Positions 30,519-61,578 of a DNA stretch of 64,000 bases are shown here, piece by piece (position 1 is the stretch's first letter; every line of letters begins with the position of its first letter). Both the position numbers and the translations under genes were made by a program. The stretch lies in sequence record NC_105825.1; one strand, 5' to 3'. The notes under the pieces were generated by a model. It was not told the origin of the DNA. It did no database searches and saw only the letters and a program-made list of their open reading frames with translations. This DNA is from Escherichia phage ECOP18.

Positions 30519-30683
30519 ATTGTAACGACCTGAATTATTAGCAGACTATTAATCACGGAAAAATCTCATTAGCCAACTAACTATTTCATGATATATAATA
30601 TACATATAAATTAATGAGAAATAATAACTATAAGAAATCATCTAGCTAAGTGAGAACCACTATCATTTAAGTTATACACAAAG

Positions 30684-30692
30684 TTATCCACA
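30684..30692 (+). promoter_or_regulatory. DnaA box (ttatccaca)
   Basis: Perfect consensus 9-mer. Confidence 0.55.
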
Positions 30693-30763
30693 GCACTTTT
30701 TGACTTGACACGATAGGCGGCGATATAAGGACTTTTACACAGACTTATCTACAGGTTATTCCA

Positions 30764-30779
30764 CTGTATAAATATACAG
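30764..30779. promoter_or_regulatory. LexA (SOS) box-like palindrome ctgtataaatatacag
   Basis: CTGT-N8-ACAG with AT-rich spacer. Confidence 0.45.
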
Positions 30780-31046
30780 GGTAAAAAGGTAGTGTTAACA
30801 ACTGCAATCAATTTTAAGCGGCTTAAATCGCATTCTAACGAGCTAAACGCTGCGGGGTAATATTAAAGTAAAGCCTTAATGCGTCGCCCTGGTGGCTTCG
30901 CCGTGGTTTGCTCTTTATTGCACCGCTGCGCGGTTAGCATAAAAATAGGCGCTAGGCAAGGAAAATAAAAAGGTAAAATAATATTTGCCTATGCTAGAAA
31001 TTTACCTTTATCATTCACTCACCGATTAACGAGGGAGGCCGAACAA

Positions 31047-32057
31047 ATGAGGCTTTATAAACCTGATAATGCCACCGTTTTAAAAGGTGCATTGCGCAAC
31101 CTGCTGGATGGTAGCAAGTCAACCAGCATTAAACATTTTATTAACAAGATTGAAACTATTCATCAAAACTTTTTTGATGATTATGACGCTTATGATATGG
31201 ATAGTTTTCTACCCTTATATAGACAAGGGGCAACGCTAGTTTTATATAATCGGGATTGCCATATCTTTACAGGCAGGGGAGCGGGGCCGGATACCGATTT
31301 TATTGTTGCGCAGGGTAATAATATTGTTGCGTATCATAGCAATTCAGGCCGTCAATCATTTAATATAAATAGTTTTGAGCTTATTGGACTTGATCTGATA
31401 AATGGACTTTCTAGCATTGAGGGATTTTTAGATGTTATCTGGAAGTATTTACCCGCTGGATGGCATAAGCCGGATAACGACGGATCTCAATATACCGGTA
31501 TAATGGCTTTTGATGGCGACGGTAATTTTTTGTTACCACGGGAGCTATACCCATATATTTATGATGGGGATATAGAAAGCGCTGGTTTTTCTTTCTGGAA
31601 AGATGAAGATCAGATTATTGACAGCGTAGAAAACCATGCTGTAAATTCTAACACTCAAAGCGTTAACACTCAAACTACTGAAAACAAAGGAAAAAACACT
31701 AGGACCAAGATTGCTAACATCGTTGCCGCTAATAAATCCGCCGTTGTAAATGCTGCAAAACTGGAAGCGGGTAAAATTGCACTGACTCAAATCACGAAAG
31801 TAGCGGCTAAAAAAGCACCGTTCATGATTAAAGGCTATATTGATACGCCGATTGGTCGAGTAGTGATTGCTAACCTGCTAAGTGTAGCGGTTGACCAGTA
31901 CGCACCGACTAACCAGAAAGCGAAAGCGGTAGCAGGGGCGGCTATGGAAGCGGCAATGGTGGAAATGGTGCAAAGTTTTAACATCGCTGAAATGATTGAT
32001 GAAATGGTGAAAGGTATTGATATTTCTACTTTTACCACTAGCACCGAAATCGAGTAA
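31047..32057 (+). CDS. hypothetical protein (336 aa)
   Basis: RBS gagggagg upstream; N-terminal globular part, NT-rich linker, amphipathic Ala/Val/Lys-rich C-terminus. Confidence 0.6.
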   Translation: MRLYKPDNATVLKGALRNLLDGSKSTSIKHFINKIETIHQNFFDDYDAYDMDSFLPLYRQGATLVLYNRDCHIFTGRGAGPDTDFIVAQGNNIVAYHSNSGRQSFNINSFELIGLDLINGLSSIEGFLDVIWKYLPAGWHKPDNDGSQYTGIMAFDGDGNFLLPRELYPYIYDGDIESAGFSFWKDEDQIIDSVENHAVNSNTQSVNTQTTENKGKNTRTKIANIVAANKSAVVNAAKLEAGKIALTQITKVAAKKAPFMIKGYIDTPIGRVVIANLLSVAVDQYAPTNQKAKAVAGAAMEAAMVEMVQSFNIAEMIDEMVKGIDISTFTTSTEIE

Positions 32058-32066
32058 TAATATTTA

Positions 32067-32096
32067 GTGGGGATTATTTCCCCACTTTACTATTCC
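32067..32096 (+). terminator. hairpin plus T-rich tail
   Basis: agtggggattatttccccact followed by ttactatt. Confidence 0.45.
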
Positions 32097-32122
32097 CTTG
32101 TTAATTAATAGGAGGCTAACTA

Positions 32123-32617
32123 ATGGCTGAGGAAAAATACGGCTTCTCGCTAGGAGAAGTGAGCACGGCTAAACATGATATGATCATTTTAGTCGATTGT
32201 CATACTGGCTATTGCGGAGAAGGGAACACCGAAGAATACTTTGTTCCTGCTGGTACGGATCTGGACGCTTTCGCTCATGAAATGGCTATTGATAATGCTT
32301 CTCGTTTTGGTAGCGATGGCTATGAAGACGAAGAAACTGGCGAATGGTATGAAAATGAAAACGTATATGCAAGCCTTTATCATTATCAGCTAAGTAAATC
32401 CGGCACATATGTAAACGGCGGCGATCCTATTAATTCCGTCATGAAATTAATTATTAAATATGGTGGCGTCGAGATAATTGATAACAAAGCGGTAATATAC
32501 GCAAACCGATTAAAACAGCTTGTTTATATTCCTGATAGTACCCGATGGGATGAATACGCTGTTTTGCATGACGAATTGAAACGATGTTTCAATATTGAAT
32601 CCCTGCAAGTAGTCTAA
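32123..32617 (+). CDS. hypothetical acidic protein (164 aa)
   Basis: RBS aggaggc; Asp/Glu/Tyr-rich, no motif. Confidence 0.6.
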   Translation: MAEEKYGFSLGEVSTAKHDMIILVDCHTGYCGEGNTEEYFVPAGTDLDAFAHEMAIDNASRFGSDGYEDEETGEWYENENVYASLYHYQLSKSGTYVNGGDPINSVMKLIIKYGGVEIIDNKAVIYANRLKQLVYIPDSTRWDEYAVLHDELKRCFNIESLQVV

Positions 32618-32722
32618 TGTAAAGTTTTGTAAAGGTCGCCTTTTATGGTGGCCTTTTTTGTTATAATGCTTTTACACCAAAACGGTGGATTGAAAATTTT
32701 CCCAAAAATTTGGAGGCTTAAA

Positions 32723-32953
32723 ATGGTTGCTTATTCTTCTGCTAGTCATCTGTTTACCGCGCAAGGCTGGGTATCTAATCGTGCTGTCATCTATGAAATG
32801 GTGCAGGAGTTCGGCATTGCTAAAACTTATAATACCATTCAGGAACTATATAACGCCGATAAAATCGATCAGCAAACGGCTGGCTTTTTACTGGATACCC
32901 TGAAAGCTGAACATTGCACTAAAAAACAAGCCGCTAAAATTGTTTTAATGTAA
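32723..32953 (+). CDS. hypothetical protein (~76 aa; start moved to ATG with RBS)
   Basis: ggaggcttaaaATG at 32723; ORF track start 32645 lacks RBS. Confidence 0.45.
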   Translation: MVAYSSASHLFTAQGWVSNRAVIYEMVQEFGIAKTYNTIQELYNADKIDQQTAGFLLDTLKAEHCTKKQAAKIVLM

Positions 32954-33002
32954 TTAATAACGGGGCGTTACTTTCGCCCCGATAACTAGGAGGCTATCAC
33001 AA

Positions 33003-33150
33003 ATGGTTATTTTTCGATCTATTTTAGCGGGTATCTTGGGCGCTATTTTATCGTTATTTGCGATAGCTTTCGGCGTTCACGCTGTTATTATTGGCGCTGG
33101 CATTGCTGCGTTTTCTTATCTGCTGGGCTGCATGACTAGTAAAGGAGAAT
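33003..33150 (+). CDS. small membrane peptide (49 aa)
   Basis: Not in ORF track; strong RBS taggaggct; two hydrophobic helices. Confidence 0.45.
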
Positions 33151-33154
33151 AAAA

Positions 33155-33367
33155 ATGATCCGCAACGTTTCCCTTGCACGTTCGAAAGGCTTTAAGCTGG
33201 TGGATGTTAACACGTTCGAGCGGGAAGATTGTAAAATCGAATATGTAGCACGTAACAAAAATGCCTTTCGTGTTACCGAGAAAAAATTTGATAAGCGCGG
33301 CAACGTGATAGCTGAAACAGTTAAACATTTTGCCACCTTTTACGCTGCTTTTCGTGGGGTATTATGA
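33155..33367 (+). CDS. hypothetical protein (70 aa)
   Basis: RBS aaggaga; basic. Confidence 0.45.
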   Translation: MIRNVSLARSKGFKLVDVNTFEREDCKIEYVARNKNAFRVTEKKFDKRGNVIAETVKHFATFYAAFRGVL

Positions 33368-33486
33368 TTCAGCAAATTAAAACGGCTTTTCGTTTTTGGG
33401 GCGTCCTGCCTTCAATTGGTTTTATTCTGATAATTATTAGTCAGCTAATGATCATCGGCGGAACTATTTGGGAGCTATGCAAATGA
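33364..33486 (+). CDS. small membrane peptide (40 aa)
   Basis: Not in ORF track; start overlaps previous stop; single TM helix. Confidence 0.35.
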   Translation: MIQQIKTAFRFWGVLPSIGFILIIISQLMIIGGTIWELCK

Positions 33487-33827
33487 TAATTTATGAAGGC
33501 AATCGCTTTGTTGCTAATTACCGTCCGGCATTATTAGCAAACTATTTAAACCAGCTTTCCCCAGCTTATAAGGGCGTTATTAATATTTATGAGGGAAAGG
33601 CGCATTATAAAATTAATGCGGTCGTTGCCCGTGAACTAGCATTTCAATTTTTGACCTTTGCATCTTGTGACGTTCAGGTTATGGGTGAGGCATTAATCGC
33701 GGAAAATGAAGAGGATTTTATTAATATTTTCCGTAAGGTATGCACTGAGCGCTTGATAATGAAAGGCGCGTATATTCAATCAACTGCGGAAAGTATTGAA
33801 ACAGCATTTCGAAAGGTGGCGCAATGA
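33483..33827 (+). CDS. hypothetical protein (~114 aa)
   Basis: ATGA overlap with previous gene; ORF track frame 33468-33827. Confidence 0.45.
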   Translation: MIIYEGNRFVANYRPALLANYLNQLSPAYKGVINIYEGKAHYKINAVVARELAFQFLTFASCDVQVMGEALIAENEEDFINIFRKVCTERLIMKGAYIQSTAESIETAFRKVAQ

Positions 33828-33927
33828 GATTATATATTTTCGTTGGTAATGTTAAGGCAGCTAATGATTCCGCTGGTGGCGACAACGTTCGCCACCATTG
33901 GCAAAAATATATTTACTAGGAGTTATT

Positions 33928-34035
33928 ATGTCTGGTTTAATGTTTACCTTATTAGTAGTTTATAGCATAATTACGGCAGGAATAGTAACTTATGTTACTA
34001 GTAAAATTTGGCCGGGAATATATGGTAATTTTTAA
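33928..34035 (+). CDS. small membrane peptide (35 aa)
   Basis: Not in ORF track; RBS taggag; single TM helix. Confidence 0.35.
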   Translation: MSGLMFTLLVVYSIITAGIVTYVTSKIWPGIYGNF

Positions 34036-34050
34036 TAACGGAGCGTTATT

Positions 34051-34254
34051 ATGAGCAATAAAATTATTGTAACCAAAATCAGTACAATGGTTGATGTTTT
34101 TTACGTGCCAGATACGCCGGAGAATCGGCAAGCGGTCGAGCGGGGCGAATATGATAAAGTGATTTATGATCACGATGGTTATTATCAGTATTTGGTGGAT
34201 TCCTACGGGGAGGAGGAGAAGATCACGCATCGACTACCGGAGGAGGGTTTATGA
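34051..34254 (+). CDS. hypothetical acidic protein (67 aa)
   Basis: ORF track; RBS acggag. Confidence 0.45.
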   Translation: MSNKIIVTKISTMVDVFYVPDTPENRQAVERGEYDKVIYDHDGYYQYLVDSYGEEEKITHRLPEEGL

Positions 34255-34406
34255 AACGATGGTTTAATCACTGGTACAAGCGGTTTTTAGTACGCCGTCG
34301 CAAGTCTAGGCATCAAGATGAGTGGCGGGAGTGGGCAAAGCGTAACGGTTGCCCGCTACTATAATAATCACGGGGCGCAACTATCGGGAAGTGCCCCCAA
34401 TTCTCA

Positions 34407-34427
34407 AATGAGAATGATTCTCATTTG
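34407..34427. repeat. Fur-box-like palindrome, copy 1
   Basis: aaatgagaatgattctcattt. Confidence 0.5.
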
Positions 34428-34620
34428 ACCGCGCCCGCGATGGTTAGCCTGCTAATGATTAGGGTGTTACGTGTCGCCTTGTGTGATCGTTAGCGAGCTA
34501 ACTAATTTTCAAGCCTCCTCCAATTTTGCCCTTGTTTTAGTATCTCCACCAAAATTAAACGCGTTAGAATGCGATCTAGGACGTTTTAACGCTATATTAG
34601 AATTATTCACTGCGTAGGAA

Positions 34621-34640
34621 TACTGTATATTTATACAGTA
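34621..34640. promoter_or_regulatory. LexA (SOS) box-like palindrome tactgtatatttatacagta
   Basis: CTGT-N8-ACAG, close to consensus TACTGTATATATATACAGTA. Confidence 0.5.
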
Positions 34641-34648
34641 GGATAAGC

Positions 34649-34657
34649 TGTGGATAA
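34649..34657 (-). promoter_or_regulatory. DnaA box (tgtggataa)
   Basis: Perfect reverse complement of TTATCCACA. Confidence 0.55.
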
Positions 34658-34721
34658 GTCTGTTAATAACACCCCAAAATGGCTAGGATTCTGTCAAGTC
34701 AAATCGTGCTGTTAATAAGTC

Positions 34722-34730
34722 TGTGGATAA
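34722..34730 (-). promoter_or_regulatory. DnaA box (tgtggataa)
   Basis: Perfect reverse complement of TTATCCACA. Confidence 0.55.
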
Positions 34731-34796
34731 CTTAAATAATAGTGTTTCTCACTTCCGTTCTTAAATACGAATCACTATCATTTGCGTTCCACTTTC

Positions 34797-34815
34797 TAAA
34801 TGAGAATCATTCTGC
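34797..34815. repeat. Fur-box-like palindrome, copy 2
   Basis: taaatgagaatcattctgc. Confidence 0.45.
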
Positions 34816-34901
34816 TTTTTAAAGGAGAATCGTTTCACTTCCTGAATAATTCTCACTTCCATTCTTAAATGCGAATTATTATCATTCTCATTCCGCTTTT
34901 T

Positions 34902-34930
34902 AAATGAGAATCATTCTCATTATCATTCGC
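34902..34930. repeat. Fur-box-like palindrome, copy 3 (perfect 19-bp palindrome AATGAGAATCATTCTCATT)
   Basis: aaatgagaatcattctcattatcattcgc. Confidence 0.5.
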
Positions 34931-34964
34931 ATTCAGGCGAGCAGGGCAATTGCCCTGCGCTTTT

Positions 34965-35632
34965 GTGCAAATCCGACATTGCTCCACGGGTGTTACGTGC
35001 GGGCGTGTATGTGCGAATCCGACAATTTTTGGTAGTGTGCAAATCCGACCCGAAAAATTTTTATAGTGTGCAAATCCGACAATGAATTTTCCTAAAAACT
35101 CCAGCAATCACGAACTGCGTTCGAATCCTGTGGGGTATGTGCAAATCCGACACGGTTTTTCTAGGATTAAGATGTGCGAATCCGACAAGATTTTTGTGAC
35201 TTCGATTGGAGGGTGTGTGATTGTGTGAGTTTGGGGAGAAGTTGAGAGAGCGAGAAAAATTTGAGGGAACTGCGGGAGGGGCGCATGTTTGGTGCGGAGC
35301 ACCTGATTTGCGGGGATTTTGGGGAAGAGTTGAGAAGATTTGGGTTAATTTGAGATTAGTGCAGAAAAAGTAAAATTTTATTAGCTAAATGGAGCAAAAT
35401 AGCTTGACAAGTGAAAATTCTTGTGGCTCTAAAAACTCAGGCAATCATGGGCCTTCGGCCCGAAATAATGCTGCCATTTTCAGGAGATTATGTGTCCATG
35501 AAAACTCAGGCAATCATGGGCCTTCGGCCCGAAATAATGCTGCCATTTTCAGGAGATTATGTGTCCATGAAAACTTAGGCAATTGTGCAAATCCGACCAG
35601 TTTTTAAACTTATGTCAGTGTGCAAATCCGAC
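34965..35632 (+). repeat. dispersed direct-repeat family GTGC(A/G)AATCCGAC(A/C), eight copies
   Basis: Copies at 34965, 35011, 35037, 35068, 35139, 35174, 35585, 35619; each followed by a T/A-rich tract; spacing irregular. Confidence 0.7.
35432..35569 (+). repeat. perfect tandem duplication, 2 x 69 bp, each unit with GGGCC-TTCG-GCCC hairpin
   Basis: Unit aaaactcaggcaatcatgggccttcggcccgaaataatgctgccattttcaggagattatgtgtccatg repeated head to tail. Confidence 0.8.
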
Positions 35633-35677
35633 AGTAATTTCTGGAAATGTGTTTTGGAAAAATGCCCTCTAGAAATA

Positions 35678-35749
35678 ACCGCCCTCCCAATAACCGCCCT
35701 GTATTAAACCGCCTAGTATATGTTCCTAGAAACTTAGGAGAACCGCCCT
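35678..35749 (+). repeat. short direct repeats aaccgccct (3-4 copies)
   Basis: Copies at 35678, 35692 and 35741, plus a degenerate copy at 35707. Confidence 0.5.
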
Positions 35750-36077
35750 AGAAAGAGGGAGTATTTCGTGAGAACTCTGGAGTTTCTAGGAAAGTGTTGT
35801 GCCATCCTAGCAGAAGAGCGGCAACCGGTGTATCATCTTGAACACAAATATTGCCTTTAAATATTTTTAGTTATTTAAAAGTAAATATACCCCCATTTCA
35901 TGTGAGATTCCTCGTGGGGCGCGTGAGTATTACGGAAGAACTCTAATATTGGCCCGCGCTAAGACTAGCCGCTATAGCACAGACGCAAATAGAGTTGTAA
36001 TAATCATCGCCCCTAGAGTTCACAATAAGAGTTATTGTTAATCTATGAGATTATTATAACATACATTTTTAATAACG

Positions 36078-36833
36078 TCAAGAAGATTTTACTAATGTTT
36101 TTGGATTCTTCTTGGCTTTGAGATATATCCCTTTAGATGCTAGATAGATATATGTTGCTAGAAATGAAGATTCTGATCCCGATTCCTCATAGGTTAACGT
36201 ACCTCTAGGGTATTTATTTGTTTTAGGAGCATAGTTAAGCACAGCCGCAGTTAATGACCCTAATCCTAGAACATCTGCAAGACGTCTAAAGGTATTCTCT
36301 TCATCATGGATAGCATAAAGAATGTTATCTTCAATATCCGTTAATGGAATTTTACGGGTATGAGATACTGCAATCCGTGCTATCATAGCTCCAATTGTTT
36401 TATTAATATCCTCGAAAGAAACACTCTCCATATATTTTAGAGGGGGAAGATGGTCATATTTACATTTCTTAGGTGGAATAAGAAGTTGTTCAGGATAAGC
36501 CTCTAGTGCCTGACGAACGTTTGCTTCTGGATATGTTGGTAAAGGTTCATCTATAATAACATGTAAGAAATTAGCTCTGTGCCCCTTAGCAGTTGGATCT
36601 AAAGACTTCAATATTTTGTTCATATCCACGTATGAATACGCTAGATCTGCTTGAGGAGCATTAATATCAAACTTAATCTTCTTACCTTCCCATTTAGCAG
36701 GGAACATCTCACAAACAAACATTACTGCATGTTTAACATCTGGCTCTAGCTCTGATAGACATTTGTGATCTGCTGTTACTGCTAAAGCGAGTATATTCTT
36801 AAATTTATTAGCTTCTTCAATCATATATCCCAT
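36078..36833 (-). CDS. hypothetical early protein (251 aa)
   Basis: ORF track; no motif recognised. Confidence 0.45.
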   Translation of the reverse strand: MGYMIEEANKFKNILALAVTADHKCLSELEPDVKHAVMFVCEMFPAKWEGKKIKFDINAPQADLAYSYVDMNKILKSLDPTAKGHRANFLHVIIDEPLPTYPEANVRQALEAYPEQLLIPPKKCKYDHLPPLKYMESVSFEDINKTIGAMIARIAVSHTRKIPLTDIEDNILYAIHDEENTFRRLADVLGLGSLTAAVLNYAPKTNKYPRGTLTYEESGSESSFLATYIYLASKGIYLKAKKNPKTLVKSS

Positions 36834-37162
36834 GCCTGCTGACTATTATCACTAACTTGTGTCTTTTTCTTTCTTTGTGGTTTAAAAGCTCCTTTAGTAT
36901 TGCTTCTATTAGGCTCTAATTTATACCACAGCATTCCTAGCTGGTTAACCATATGAGCAACATTTCTAGGAGTCAATGGTGGTAGAAATTCGCAGTTTGA
37001 TATTTCCACTAATATATTAAGTAACTCTGTCTCTTTAGCTTTACTGTTTACTACCACCACGTATTCTAATGTTTCTACCTCGGAATCCTCGTCTTTATAG
37101 TAGAGGCTAAGAGTAATTAAATTGTCACCAGCAGGAGTTATTTTTGTTTTACCAAATATCAT
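36821..37162 (-). CDS. hypothetical early protein (113 aa)
   Basis: ORF track. Confidence 0.4.
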   Translation of the reverse strand: MIFGKTKITPAGDNLITLSLYYKDEDSEVETLEYVVVVNSKAKETELLNILVEISNCEFLPPLTPRNVAHMVNQLGMLWYKLEPNRSNTKGAFKPQRKKKTQVSDNSQQAWDI

Positions 37163-37755
37163 TAATTACCTCTCTTATCTTCATTAATAGCAGCTCCCAA
37201 CGCCTCCATAATAGCATCCTCTAAACTTCCATGTTTACCAGGATTATTAAAATGAATAGTACAAACAGAACTCCTAGAAACTCCAGCATCCACAGGTGCT
37301 ACGCTTCGCATATCAGATTCAAAAGCTTCTTGAGTATGTTTCAACTGCACAGAAGGGCCGTAATCTTCACCAACTCGATAAGATTGATTAGACGACAGCG
37401 TACCACCGCATGGAACATTGTGTAAATCCGATGATTTATTTAACAGTGCAATACCGCCTTTTGACCACGGGTCACTAACAGTGGTACTGGGACGATTTAC
37501 CTCAGTCTTCACGAGTTTATAACCAGCGTCTATTAGTGCATTAATCAGGTTATCAGCTGGGATGCGAGCCGTGCCAAAAATCTTACGAGCATCTTCAAGC
37601 TTACCTTCAAAATCTTTACACGCTCTAAGGTCGGTGTGTGCAAATGTTAGCTTCATAGATTTGAATTGTACAGTAGCAGTTAAATCTTTAAAGCTATAAT
37701 CCCATGTGTTCAGTTCATGGTCTAGTACTAATTGAATAGGTTGTTGTGTAAACAT
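37162..37755 (-). CDS. hypothetical early protein (197 aa)
   Basis: ORF track. Confidence 0.45.
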   Translation of the reverse strand: MFTQQPIQLVLDHELNTWDYSFKDLTATVQFKSMKLTFAHTDLRACKDFEGKLEDARKIFGTARIPADNLINALIDAGYKLVKTEVNRPSTTVSDPWSKGGIALLNKSSDLHNVPCGGTLSSNQSYRVGEDYGPSVQLKHTQEAFESDMRSVAPVDAGVSRSSVCTIHFNNPGKHGSLEDAIMEALGAAINEDKRGN

Positions 37756-37940
37756 TATTTATTCTCCAGTTTGTCTAACAGTTTATGGGCTGCTAGATTA
37801 TATTGTTTGAGTTCACGATTAAGGATTTGGTTCTCACACTTTAGCTCTAGATTCTTGTTGTTAAGAATGTTGCAGATTAGTAGAAGTGCTAGTATTAGTA
37901 ACAGAGAACCTACGAGCATTAAAAGAAAAAGAGTTTCCAT
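37755..37940 (-). CDS. small membrane protein (61 aa)
   Basis: TM helix then coiled segment. Confidence 0.35.
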   Translation of the reverse strand: METLFLLMLVGSLLLILALLLICNILNNKNLELKCENQILNRELKQYNLAAHKLLDKLENK

Positions 37941-38173
37941 TATTTAATTCCCATGTAACGTTTGAGATATATGATGAAGTCTTCTGCTGTATGCTCTACG
38001 CTACCTTGAGCTACGAATAGCTTGAGAGCTTCACGTTGTAACTTAAGAGCAGCCAACTCACCCCGTAATTTTACCAGATCTTCTGCTAGTTCTCTAGCTC
38101 TACGCATAATAGCAAAAGATACAAGTACTACGATGAATAACATAACTACTAAAATAATTGCTATGATTTCCAT
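37940..38173 (-). CDS. small membrane protein (77 aa)
   Basis: TM helix then coiled segment. Confidence 0.35.
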   Translation of the reverse strand: MEIIAIILVVMLFIVVLVSFAIMRRARELAEDLVKLRGELAALKLQREALKLFVAQGSVEHTAEDFIIYLKRYMGIK

Positions 38174-38451
38174 ATTAACATCCAGCTTTTATCACACATT
38201 TGGGCATGATCTATCAGTTCATTCATTGATGTGTTGTTATCATAAATGCACTCTAGTATATACTTTCTGTCAAATTCGTCAACCAAATATTCTACATTAT
38301 TTATTACTACTTTATACAGATCTGGGACTAGAGAGCATGTATTTGGTACGGGGCGACTGCTTAAGTCTATTTCATTATAGCCCCATGTTGTTTTAAATAG
38401 TTTGTTACTAAGTGCTGCTAATGGATTTGACCATATAATATAGCTACTCAC
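38161..38451 (-). CDS. hypothetical protein (96 aa)
   Basis: ORF track. Confidence 0.4.
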   Translation of the reverse strand: MSSYIIWSNPLAALSNKLFKTTWGYNEIDLSSRPVPNTCSLVPDLYKVVINNVEYLVDEFDRKYILECIYDNNTSMNELIDHAQMCDKSWMLIWKS

Positions 38452-38992
38452 TATTTATCTCCATTCTTAACTTTGAAAACTTATTATACCAAACTATATG
38501 ATTATCGTCAATTACAAATTTATGATAACATGCTGGTACGGTATAAGTTCCATAATCCGTGACACGCTGCACAACCTTGTGTGCACACAGTCGACAACCG
38601 TGCCCTTCTAAATGAGATCTAGCCGTTTGCCAGTAATAACCATCATGATCCGGACAATAGATCTCGACTTGCTGTTGCATTGTTTTATAATTTACACGCT
38701 CATACCCAAAGAAAGCTCCATGAGCTGCAACAGCTTTCTTGATAAATATAAGGTTTAGTGCTTCTTGCTGAAAGTCGGGATGTAGCTGCTTAATCTTATT
38801 TCTATTAATAGATCCATCAGATTTGATAAACCTATTTATTGGGAAGTTGTTAGCTTCCTCGATTAATAATTCATTTACTTTTTCTCTCATATTAGATATT
38901 CTCACAGCTAAGGTAGAAGCATTCGTAAGCATCACCAGTAAACTCTTTATCTTGTAGTATACACTTAGCCTGGTCTTGTGGTACTCCGGCAT
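38444..38992 (-). CDS. hypothetical protein with C-terminal Cys/His cluster (182 aa; true start may be internal)
   Basis: ORF track; overlaps next ORF by 100 nt. Confidence 0.4.
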   Translation of the reverse strand: MPEYHKTRLSVYYKIKSLLVMLTNASTLAVRISNMREKVNELLIEEANNFPINRFIKSDGSINRNKIKQLHPDFQQEALNLIFIKKAVAAHGAFFGYERVNYKTMQQQVEIYCPDHDGYYWQTARSHLEGHGCRLCAHKVVQRVTDYGTYTVPACYHKFVIDDNHIVWYNKFSKLRMEINSE

Positions 38993-56502: not shown

Positions 56503-56581
56503 TGGTAGATCGCCTGGGACTCGAACCCAGAACCTTCCGATTAAAAGTCGGATGCTACTAAACCTATTGAGCTAGCGATCT
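56503..56581 (-). tRNA. tRNA-Lys (anticodon TTT)
   Basis: Manual fold: acceptor AGATCGC/GCGATCT, anticodon stem TCCGA/TCGGA, loop CTTTTAA. Confidence 0.65.
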
Positions 56582-59257: not shown

Positions 59258-59348
59258 TGGTGTTGGATGATGGAGTCGAACCACCCGAGACCCTTCCGAG
59301 TCGGCAGATTTACAGTCTGCTTCGCTACCTCTACGATACTAATCCAAC
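59258..59348 (-). tRNA. tRNA-Tyr (anticodon GTA), long variable arm
   Basis: Manual fold: acceptor GTTGGAT/ATCCAAC, anticodon stem GCAGA/TCTGC, loop CTGTAAA. Confidence 0.7.
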
Positions 59349-60049: not shown

Positions 60050-60224
60050 GTTGTTTCTCCAGTTTCATGTTTAATAGTCTACAAATAAAATCAATGTCTT
60101 CATCTGTGCCTAGATCTCTATCTTCAAGAGTTGCCTTGAAGTTTTTCGTCAATTCCATGAGGATAACTTCTATAGAACGACGTGTTGGCGGAGGTGGATG
60201 TCTATACATCTTATTTCCTTAAGT

Positions 60225-60301
60225 TGGTAGGGGTGGTGGGATTCGAACCCACAAAACCTGAATTTTAAGTCCAGTACCTATGCCAATTCGATTACACCCC
60301 C
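60225..60301 (-). tRNA. tRNA, anticodon loop reads TAA (Leu-type anticodon on short-variable-arm scaffold)
   Basis: Manual fold: acceptor GGGGGTG/CACCCCT, T-arm GTGGG-TTCGAAT-CCCAC, loop CTTAAAA. Confidence 0.5.
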
Positions 60302-60402
60302 ATGTAATCAGTTTATTAGTTGATACATATTATAGCCTAGTGAAAATCCTACTACTAGTCCCACAAACCAACCAATATAATAATCTTTTAGTTTCACAGG
60401 TA

Positions 60403-60588
60403 TTATCCTCGTTCAATATCTAGGGAAACACCGCAGTTAGGATTAATACCTGTACCGTTGCAATTTGAACAAATCCAGATATTGCAAAAAGTATCTCCTG
60501 CTTCTGCATCAGAACTTTCACCAATTCCCCTACACTCAGGGCAGGCACATTCTTCTAGCTCTTGCTTGAGTTCTTGAAACTTGGACAT
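60403..60588 (-). CDS. zinc-ribbon protein (61 aa)
   Basis: CxxC...CxxC pairs. Confidence 0.4.
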   Translation of the reverse strand: MSKFQELKQELEECACPECRGIGESSDAEAGDTFCNIWICSNCNGTGINPNCGVSLDIERG

Positions 60589-60597
60589 ATAGTCTCC

Positions 60598-60790
60598 TTA
60601 GTCAATTACTTTTGAGGCTTCAAGGGAGTCGATATAGTATACGTTTTCTACCATAATCATATAATCTGCCACTTTATCCATAGCTTGGGCCTCAGAGGTA
60701 GCTCTGGCTAACCTATATCCTTTTTTATATTCATCCGGGTATTCTCTATCTTGAATAAATACAACATAAACTATGTATAATTCCACTTGT
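60598..60790 (-). CDS. hypothetical protein (~63 aa, GTG start)
   Basis: RBS aggggа-like AGGGGA 6 nt upstream of GTG at 60788-60790; ORF-track N-terminal extension overlaps two tRNAs and is rejected. Confidence 0.3.
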
Positions 60791-60816
60791 AATCCCCTAA
60801 TTAAGTTGGTGGCTCC

Positions 60817-60894
60817 CCGAGGATTCGAACCTACGTACCTTCCGGTTATGAGCCGGGTGCTCATACCATATGAGCTTGAGAACCAGAATTTGGC
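60817..60894 (-). tRNA. tRNA, anticodon CAT (Met, fMet or Ile2), extended D hairpin
   Basis: Manual fold: acceptor GGTTCTC/GGGAGCC with two G-U pairs, loop CTCATAA. Confidence 0.45.
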
Positions 60895-60900
60895 GGAAGA

Positions 60901-60989
60901 AGTGGGAATCGAACCCACAAGGCTATATTTCAAACCGACAGATTAGCAATCTGCTGCAATACCGTTATGCTATTCTTCCGAATTTATAA
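60901..60989 (-). tRNA. tRNA-Ser (anticodon GCT), long variable arm
   Basis: Manual fold: acceptor GGAAGAA/TTCTTCC, T-arm GTGGG-TTCGATT-CCCAC, loop TTGCTAA. Confidence 0.6.
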
Positions 60990-61000
60990 GATATATTATA

Positions 61001-61570
61001 TTAGAAATTTAGCTTCATAGCAAGAAAATTTTTCAAGTTTTCGGTAGACATCTCATCCACATCTACGGGAGAAACAAAGCCGTTTAATTTTCTAGCAAAT
61101 TTTTCACCCGCAGGATCGTTGTCTCCGACAGCTACCAATTTAAAAGGTAATAATTTCAGTTGCTTTAATAACGCTTTTCCTGGAGAAGAACCTAACATTG
61201 CCAGGGCTGGATAACCAGCGTTATGTAGCGCAACTGCCTTAAATACAGATTCAGCGATCAATACTACTTTTTCATCTCCATTGAGAGTTTCTAGTCCCCA
61301 TACACACTGGGTAGTAGAATAAGTAAAATATTTAGCTTCAAAGGGACACTTACTATGACCTTTTGGAGCAGAAGGATTATACGTCTGATAGCCTCGCAAC
61401 ATCCCGGAGAAGTCATACAACGGGACTGTTAGCCATCCTTCCGGACTTAACCAGCAATGATATTTATCTGTATCAAATCCTCTGGATAAGAGGTGCTGTG
61501 TTAGCTCATCAACATTCATATTTGGTTCCTCTCTCAAATTTATAGATATATTATACAGAGAATTTAGCAT
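61001..61570 (-). CDS. small Toprim-domain protein (189 aa)
   Basis: Toprim-like acidic motif LVAVGDNDPAGEKFARKL preceded by a Glu-containing strand (VLIAESVFKA); N-terminal Cys/His pairs. Confidence 0.45.
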   Translation of the reverse strand: MLNSLYNISINLREEPNMNVDELTQHLLSRGFDTDKYHCWLSPEGWLTVPLYDFSGMLRGYQTYNPSAPKGHSKCPFEAKYFTYSTTQCVWGLETLNGDEKVVLIAESVFKAVALHNAGYPALAMLGSSPGKALLKQLKLLPFKLVAVGDNDPAGEKFARKLNGFVSPVDVDEMSTENLKNFLAMKLNF

Positions 61571-61578
61571 TCAAGCAA
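61550..61578 (-). promoter_or_regulatory. early sigma70-type promoter (-35 TTGCTT, 17 bp, -10 TATAAT)
   Basis: Read on minus strand. Confidence 0.6.

Follow-up and report, generated by a model that had tools for sequence, protein, structure and literature searches.

The window, a 64,000-nt stretch of Escherichia phage ECOP18 (NC_105825.1), originates from a T5-like phage (Tequintavirus), and the 4 kb around the gene described here are 99.9% identical to Escherichia phages T5_ev212, SUT_E420 and vB_EcoS_MM-1. On the minus strand we identified a gene that is almost certainly rad (retron anti-defense), known as ORF75 in phage SP15 and as T5.076 in T5 (Table 1). This gene diverges from a plus-strand T5.077-like gene and heads a same-strand run of 21 tRNA genes, of which 20 were found by ARAGORN and one by Rfam. 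The order of rad and the two tRNA genes that follow it is the same in T5 and SP15. According to the T5 annotation, promoter P15a (37802–37876) lies directly upstream of T5.076 and promoter P15b (37247–37321) overlaps its end; both have equivalents in the window. The P15a-equivalent promoter is preceded by an A/T-rich stretch and was located by hand, using the T5 annotation and conservation; a consensus promoter scan did not return this site, the −35 element of which matches at only three of six positions. The P15b-like site within rad points toward the downstream tRNA genes.

Table 1. Features at the rad locus, in window coordinates.
Feature	Position	Strand	Remarks
Longest ORF	61001..61570	-	189 aa
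rad/ORF75/T5.076 CDS, conserved form	61001..61519	-	172 codons + stop
17-codon 5′ extension of the longest ORF	61520..61570	-	overlaps promoter; probably untranslated
Early promoter, T5 P15a equivalent	61550..61578	-	−35 TTGCTT 61578-61573, 17-nt spacer, −10 TATAAT 61555-61550
Shine-Dalgarno GAGAGG	61528..61533	-	8 nt 5′ of Met18 ATG; read off the sequence
P15b-equivalent promoter-like site inside rad 3′ end	60995..61023	-	TTGCTA, 17 nt, TATAAT; 10/12 matches (promoter scan)
tRNA pair directly downstream of rad	60810..60979	-	ARAGORN + Rfam
tRNA-Ser(GCU)	60891-60979	-	directly 3′ of rad
tRNA with CAU anticodon	60810-60884	-	found by Rfam
T5.077-like gene	starts 61726	+	divergent from rad

The initial annotation described a stand-alone protein of 189 aa. 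The ORF itself is real, but its product probably comprises 172 aa and starts at Met18 (ATG at 61519), the 189-aa reading probably being over-extended by 51 nt (17 codons) at the 5′ end. The starts of homologues, the position of the Shine-Dalgarno sequence, the promoter embedded in the longer frame, the disruption of that frame in related phages and the numbering of published mutants all argue for the shorter form. The homologues in the family alignment all begin four to five residues before the HLLSR motif, at the equivalent of Met18, and about 50 homologues in the protein database are all about 170–200 aa long. The Met18 ATG is served by the GAGAGG sequence, the place of which is taken by AGGAG or AGGGG in divergent relatives; no Shine-Dalgarno sequence precedes the first ATG (61570). 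The TATAAT box of the P15a-equivalent promoter falls inside codons 6–8 of the long ORF. When the upstream regions of 25 T5-like loci (22 distinct) were compared, the long frame was found to be broken by indels in two and swapped for an unrelated terminator-like hairpin in five; the spacing between TATAAT and the Met18 ATG was kept in all of them, so that the −10 element is conserved across two different upstream contexts. The published mutants R13E, P33T, I88T, D135H and E156H fit the sequence only if numbered from Met18: all five residues are present in the 172-aa form, and the set does not fit the 189-aa numbering. The corrected start codon matters for the design of expression constructs. 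Residue numbers below refer to the 172-aa form unless stated otherwise.

The assignment as rad follows from near-identity to SP15 ORF75 and from the same genomic position. The window protein is identical to SP15 ORF75 (AP019559, 35930–36499) at 187 of 189 residues, the only substitutions, counted over the 189 aa, being R13K, within the untranslated-looking extension, and S73G, and to T5.076 (ORF071 in T5 record AY587007) at 166 of 172 residues (97%). The position of SP15 ORF75 matches that of the window ORF, and the location between tRNA-Ser and the divergent T5.077-like gene is shared with both T5 and SP15. Apart from the proposed length of 172 aa as opposed to the 189 aa given in the preprint on ORF75, nothing material differs between the window gene and these genes. 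It is a rediscovery of a published anti-retron determinant, and the function that the initial annotation had left open is thereby supplied by the SP15 orthologue.

Retron-inhibiting activity was mapped to SP15 ORF75, and the product named Rad, in a preprint, where it is described as small, 189 aa long and endowed with a primase/TOPRIM domain (Azam et al. 2023, preprint). According to the same text, a tRNA-rich region of about 8 kb that includes ORF75 is deleted in phages T5n and SP15m. Plasmid-expressed Rad is reported to rescue these deletion phages on retrons Ec67, Ec78 and Ec83 (the last in the preprint only); for lambda vir, rescue is described on Ec48 and Se72 (preprint only), and Rad homologues from Proteus, Shigella and Salmonella phages are given as active to varying degree. 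Single point mutants, including D135H, are reported there to have slightly reduced activity, which double mutants lose altogether. The preprint alone also reports that Rad expression leads to less retron msr-msd ncRNA and msDNA, with reverse transcriptase and effector mRNAs not lowered, and proposes that Rad degrades the ncRNA. The subsequent peer-reviewed article (Nat Commun 2024) confirmed that T5-like phages owe their evasion of Eco2 (Ec67) and Eco7 (Ec78) to ORF75, kept only the genetic result and stated that the mechanism of ORF75 could not be determined. Later structural papers cite ORF75 under the name Rad, as an anti-defence protein, or call it the “retron inhibitor gene (ORF75)”, and our literature search found no later mechanistic study of ORF75/Rad. 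The anti-retron activity in vivo is thus a literature result for a 99%-identical protein, SP15 ORF75. What our analysis adds is a structural frame, namely that of a zinc-finger-less DnaG RNA-polymerase domain (RPD) with a conserved metal site.

The protein matches Pfam Toprim_2 (24.9 bits against a cut-off of 22.1). The initial annotation had called it a Toprim protein and had named a structure prediction lacking this fold as the outcome that would overturn the assignment; the fold is present in the AlphaFold2 model built on the family alignment (pLDDT 93.3, pTM 0.89). The model is composed of an N-terminal subdomain (residues ~1–80) and the Toprim subdomain (residues ~84–160), and the chain ends about 15 residues past the latter. 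Based on the alignment and the model, Rad begins directly with the RPD. In place of the bare Toprim unit originally described, the model thus indicates that Rad is a complete two-subdomain RPD of the DnaG/T7 gp4 type, devoid of a zinc finger and of the helicase-binding part. The original view that its size falls short of a full primase or topoisomerase was correct. Zn_ribbon_DnaG (Pfam), which is present in the T5 primase Pri, found no match in Rad, and neither Pfam nor the model revealed an ATPase domain within the 172 aa.

Superposition of the model (the two values obtained for each are given in brackets) matched Rad, along nearly its entire length, to the RPDs of DnaG-type primases and related proteins, namely Aquifex DnaG (13.7; 161), the B. 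subtilis DnaG RPD (13.4; 162), the T7 gp4 primase fragment (12.8; 144), human Twinkle (12.7; 158), the E. coli DnaG core (12.4; 161) and T4 gp61 (9.2; 146). In the fold search, only the Toprim half (87–89 residues) was matched by RNase M5 and by a small stand-alone Toprim protein. The relationship to DnaG was also reached from sequence, for which a family profile was needed because single-sequence phmmer against PDB sequences returned only noise (xylanases, E about 0.5); the 42-member profile matched the Toprim segment of E. coli DnaG (PDB) with E = 1e-3. Similarity to the T5 phage's own primase was marginal in BLASTP (E = 0.078) and reached 80% probability in profile comparison, over the Toprim half only. 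The sole PADLOC match was to “RTasDnaG-like” (E = 5e-7); being limited to the generic Toprim segment (residues 84–145), it led us to set aside a specific kinship to this defence model.

The metal-site residues of Rad correspond to Glu90, Asp133-x-Asp135 and Asp153. The acidic motif following a Glu-containing strand, from which the initial annotation had started, is therefore present, the DxD being carried by VAVGDNDPAGEKF and the Toprim glutamate by VVLIAES. In the alignment of 42 sequences, with identity down to 35%, the invariant residues are H9, R13, G43, Q45, Y47, Y64, W74-G75-L76-E77-T78, E90, F93, H99, A105, D135 and G138; D153 is nearly invariant, and D133, which most of the displayed rows retain, is absent from the list of invariant or nearly invariant columns. 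We read these motifs against the DnaG residue numbering and roles (EGxxD, KYxNS). On this basis, the K/R63-Y64 pair sits at the position of DnaG KYxNS, the GFGGR motif is represented by G(F/Y)Q(Q/T)Y, and the second acidic residue of EGxxD is replaced by lysine in most family members, a substitution that counts against a catalytic account. The N-terminal Cys/His pairs that had also been pointed out do occur in the sequence (H38/C39 and H72/C75 in 189-aa numbering), but relatives carry KN, VN or KRLN at these positions and the only invariant histidines are H9 and H99. We consequently rejected a zinc site, as the pairs are not conserved and look like chance.

Among other known systems, Rad shares the RPD with the DnaG-type primases (E. 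coli, Aquifex and B. subtilis DnaG, the T7 gp4 fragment 1NUI and T4 gp61). It differs from them in lacking the CHC2 zinc ribbon, the C-terminal helicase-binding domain and the third helical subdomain, and in being encoded by a dispensable gene outside the T5 replication module. Rad is not a member of the Mycoplasma MG010 “DNA primase-like protein” family (TIGR00646), scoring 21 bits against a cut-off of 260. RNase M5, which matures 5S rRNA, has an N-terminal Toprim followed by a different RNA-binding domain, whereas the Toprim of Rad is C-terminal; only the Toprim half aligns, over 87–105 residues, with no detectable sequence kinship beyond it. With the OLD-family and defence Toprim nucleases (P2 Old, GajA, PARIS AriB, the retron Eco2 TOPRIM) Rad has in common the Toprim metal centre and a place in the same phage–host conflict, and several of these enzymes cut RNA or tRNA. 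They are, however, host or defence effectors coupled to an ATPase or a reverse transcriptase domain, whereas Rad serves the phage in counter-defence, has an N-terminal subdomain of the primase type and lacks an ATPase.

Based on these observations, we propose that rad is an accessory early gene encoding a paralogue of the primase RPD that cuts retron RNA, an account to which we assign a probability of about 0.6. The gene opens the deletable stretch, rich in tRNA genes, of T5-like genomes. The protein it encodes appears to have kept a primase-like groove for single strands, as suggested by H9, R13, G43, Q45, Y47, K/R63-Y64 and the WGLET motif, together with what looks like an intact Toprim metal centre (E90, D133-x-D135, D153). 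Either the retron's structured ncRNA or the RNA moiety of the complex of reverse transcriptase and msDNA would be bound in the groove and cut in a metal-dependent manner. The msDNA-based sensor would then not be made or maintained, and the retron effector would never be licensed.

The catalytic step taken by itself is more tentative, and we would give it slightly less than even odds. The invariant metal-binding acidic residues favour catalysis; the mutant data speak only weakly for a strictly catalytic role, because D135H alone reduces activity only slightly. Simple destruction of the sensor also needs an extra explanation, since loss of msDNA itself activates several retrons; both Eco2 and the type I-A retrons are triggered by degradation of msDNA. 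According to the preprint text, Rad was already being expressed from a plasmid when the drop in ncRNA and msDNA was measured. During real infection msDNA complexes are already present when Rad appears, which counts against a simple cleavage account, as does the observation, made in one of the later structural papers, that T5 carrying ORF75 fails to evade the type I-A retron of FORC82.

The alternative that best survives, which we regard as unlikely, is non-catalytic: the groove would sequester the ncRNA, the msDNA or the reverse transcriptase and so block priming or assembly, the drop in ncRNA being secondary, for example through turnover of RNA left unprotected. The slight effect of D135H fits such a mode of action, as does the similar effect of mutations scattered over the surface. 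RPDs of the DnaG type bind single-stranded nucleic acid in the groove, and one of the top structural matches of Rad is the 3B39 complex. Human Twinkle, a mitochondrial helicase, has lost the catalytic acidic residues in its primase-like N-terminal domain, a structural match to Rad, and thus illustrates that the fold can persist without primase chemistry. Rad, on the other hand, keeps these residues: the invariance of E90 and D135 and the near-invariance of D153 down to 35% identity are hard to reconcile with a protein that performs no metal-dependent chemistry, and overexpression in the published experiments can mask a partial catalytic defect. Cleavage of retron RNA therefore remains the reading that we prefer over sequestration.

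The wider family gives a further view of what such an enzyme may act on. Its profile retrieved 1368 representatives at E ≤ 1e-3 and 256 at E ≤ 1e-30 from 1.84 billion proteins, most of them stand-alone proteins of 165–200 aa. The preprint text attributes 40% of Rad homologues to Mycolicibacterium phages; this share was not reproduced in our tblastn search (E ≤ 1e-5), where no mycobacteriophage was among the ten commonest organism names. A minority of representatives are fusions. One combines a CCA-adding tRNA nucleotidyltransferase (PolyA_pol head, RNA-binding and HD regions) with a C-terminal Rad, and others join Rad to a HAD phosphatase, to a cytidylyltransferase-like NTase, to Mom, or to both GNAT and an Arr-type ADP-ribosyltransferase, Rad lying between the last two. 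In Vibrio phage F97, Shewanella phage 1/40 and a metagenomic locus, the homologue directly follows or overlaps a tRNA nucleotidyltransferase gene. Genes for tRNAs occur in the 6-kb flanks of 12 of the 55 divergent viral loci, always on the strand of the homologue and in about eight cases at a distance of roughly 50–250 bp from it. Nicotinamide phosphoribosyltransferase, metallophosphoesterases, an ATP-dependent ligase and a cpYpsA SLOG protein are other recurrent neighbours. Overall, these neighbourhoods look like accessory, counter-defence regions with an RNA or tRNA flavour, and not like a replication module.

Such associations raise the alternative that the primary job of Rad concerns tRNA or other RNA ends, either in processing the transcripts of the phage tRNA cluster or in repairing or protecting tRNAs that defence nucleases attack, with the activity against Eco2 and Eco7 as one consequence. 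Besides the fusions to and adjacency with tRNA nucleotidyltransferases and the same-strand tRNA genes, the position of rad at the head of the tRNA cluster in T5-like phages and the fact that Eco2 and Eco7 both kill by cutting tRNAs are in its favour. We nevertheless consider it distinctly improbable. Ec48 and Se72 are reportedly countered as well, and their effectors are not described as tRNases; the decrease reported is specific to msr-msd RNA and msDNA (Azam et al. 2023, preprint). Moreover, 43 of the 55 divergent loci have no nearby tRNA gene, and the association with tRNA clusters could in part reflect the common descent of large T5-like phages. A broader proposal, that the Rad family as a whole consists of widespread phage enzymes derived from the primase RPD that act on structured RNAs and tRNA ends, is speculative and in our view rather unlikely. 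If true, it would mean that these enzymes form, together with CCA-adding enzymes, HAD phosphatases and phage tRNA clusters, an RNA repair or processing toolkit against tRNA-targeting immunity, the loss of retron ncRNA being one read-out. In a bolder version, retained primase chemistry may polymerise instead of cutting. We did not find the link to CCA-adding enzymes and tRNA clusters discussed in the papers that we consulted; fusion to or adjacency with the former and location at the latter offer a lead toward how phages disarm retrons.

A role in replication is supported far less. Rad is not the replicative primase, because T5 has a complete primase gene and phages that lack the rad region are viable. 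The T5 Pri protein (T5.121) comprises a zinc ribbon, DnaG_N and Toprim, and its gene adjoins those of the DnaB-like helicase D6 and the polymerase, 30 kb from rad. Viable phages without the region include T5Mos (deletion 30661–38625), T5n, SP15m and BF23 (natural deletion). That Rad might still serve as a second DNA primase, making RNA primers for phage replication, is very improbable. The match to PHROG 849 (“DNA primase”, E = 1e-62), the product name in the T5 record and the primase-type RPD fold would speak for it, as would the homologue of Kagunavirus, which follows a helicase gene and is translationally coupled to it. These primase names are, however, automatic and domain-based (that of T5.076 derives from an InterPro Toprim sub-domain), and “DNA primase”, as many GenBank records label the gene, is a misleading misnomer. 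Kagunavirus, like T5, has a complete primase of its own, in the form of a separate 746-aa helicase-primase. Rad, in turn, lacks zinc-binding and helicase-interaction domains. Template-directed primer synthesis by T7 gp4 and DnaG depends on the zinc-binding domain. The viable deletion mutants largely refute the primase reading. A non-priming role fits a gene that is dispensable, that is found alongside a full pri gene and that reportedly lowers retron ncRNA. To this extent the suggestion of a nuclease in the initial annotation may hold; its comparison to OLD does not, as Rad has no ATPase partner domain.

That Rad is a Toprim DNA nuclease of the OLD type, for instance one directed at host DNA or responsible for the nicks of T5, is hardly credible despite its Toprim metal site and the site-specific nicks of T5 DNA (one of them annotated about 2 kb away in T5), since an ABC-ATPase domain is missing, the structural neighbours are primases and not OLD, GajA or AriB, and PADLOC returned the DnaG-like Toprim region and no OLD, Gabija or PARIS model. 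A T5 nicking enzyme was rejected separately: phage BF23 is without the gene, yet its DNA is nicked.

Fusions and adjacent genes within the Rad family (homologues of the anti-retron protein Rad) link it with tRNA/RNA-end enzymes and with polyvalent counter-defence proteins. A CCA-adding tRNA nucleotidyltransferase, comprising a PolyA_pol head, RNA-binding and HD domains, is fused to some Rad-family domains or encoded directly 5' of them. Further fusion partners are a HAD phosphatase, a cytidylyltransferase-like NTase, Mom, and GNAT together with an Arr ADP-ribosyltransferase. These fusion and partner cases include the protein representatives P0068, P0069, P0152, P0071 and P0084, as well as two viral loci (L043:4392-5990; Vibrio phage F97, L005:2724-4558).

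In jumbo phages of ~260-300 kb (tblastn matches H65-H74; mostly Erwinia phages, with one from Klebsiella), the match to Rad falls in two pieces under two adjoining annotated genes, which suggests that this homologue is frameshifted, split or interrupted. One annotation of such a gene pair is 'DNA primase (x2)'; a two-piece match is listed as an example in the table below. The region upstream of rad also varies among relatives. In one subgroup of T5-like phages (loci L019, L020, L023, L026 and L031), a GC-rich terminator-like hairpin (aagcccgcg...cgcgggcttttct) takes the place of the rad promoter region; the hairpin continues directly into a -10 box, and terminator and promoter therefore overlap.

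The tRNA cluster next to rad contains 21 tRNAs rather than 20, because Rfam adds a CAU-anticodon-loop tRNA that was missed by ARAGORN and is the equivalent of T5 tRNA-Ile2(CAU)/'tRNA-Met'. Both tRNA-Tyr(GUA) and tRNA-Lys(UUU) are present in this cluster. In T5 and SP15, tRNA-Tyr is a published counter-measure to retron Eco7, whose PtuAB cleaves host tRNA-Tyr, and tRNA-Lys to PARIS, whose AriB cleaves host tRNA-Lys.

Features of the rad region and two-piece Rad match
Feature	Position	Strand	Remark
tRNA-Lys(UUU)	56503-56581	-	
tRNA-Tyr(GUA)	59258-59348	-	
ORF, 91 aa	59477-59752	-	order as in SP15 ORF71-73
ORF, 68 aa	59843-60049	-	order as in SP15 ORF71-73
ORF, 55 aa	60042-60209	-	order as in SP15 ORF71-73
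ORF, 61 aa	60403-60588	-	CxxCxGxG-type Cys motifs (CPECRGIG...CSNCNGTG)
CAU-anticodon-loop tRNA	60810-60884	-	Rfam, 40.3 bits
T5.077-like gene, 349 aa	61726-62775	+	low-complexity protein
T5.078-like gene, 138 aa	62797-63213	+	Gln-rich low-complexity protein
Two-piece Rad match	NC_041972 44469-44952		tblastn

Among the small ORFs downstream of rad, those of 91 and 68 aa also agree in size with SP15 ORF71-72, the likeness being one of gene order and size. A gene pair from SP15 ORF71-73 is reported to neutralise retron Ec83 (Azam et al, 2023), and this pair is given as ORF71+72 in the text of the preprint but as ORF72+73 in its figure legend. The Cys motifs of the 61-aa ORF resemble a DnaJ-like zinc finger, and related records name a gene within this stretch 'antitermination protein Q(-like)'. 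Comparison of about 60210-60890 with T5 36379-37062 showed that the HNH homing endonuclease gene hegA, which T5 carries between T5.074 and tRNA-Ile2, is missing from this part of the window and from SP15, which illustrates the mosaic, endonuclease-driven variability of this region.

Both divergent neighbours of rad encode unusual low-complexity proteins annotated as 'hypothetical' in T5 and SP15. The T5.077-like protein is acidic and His-rich at its N-terminus (EEEDDDDEHCHKYGKHK), contains a Gly-rich stretch and is rich in Gln and Ala throughout its C-terminal half.
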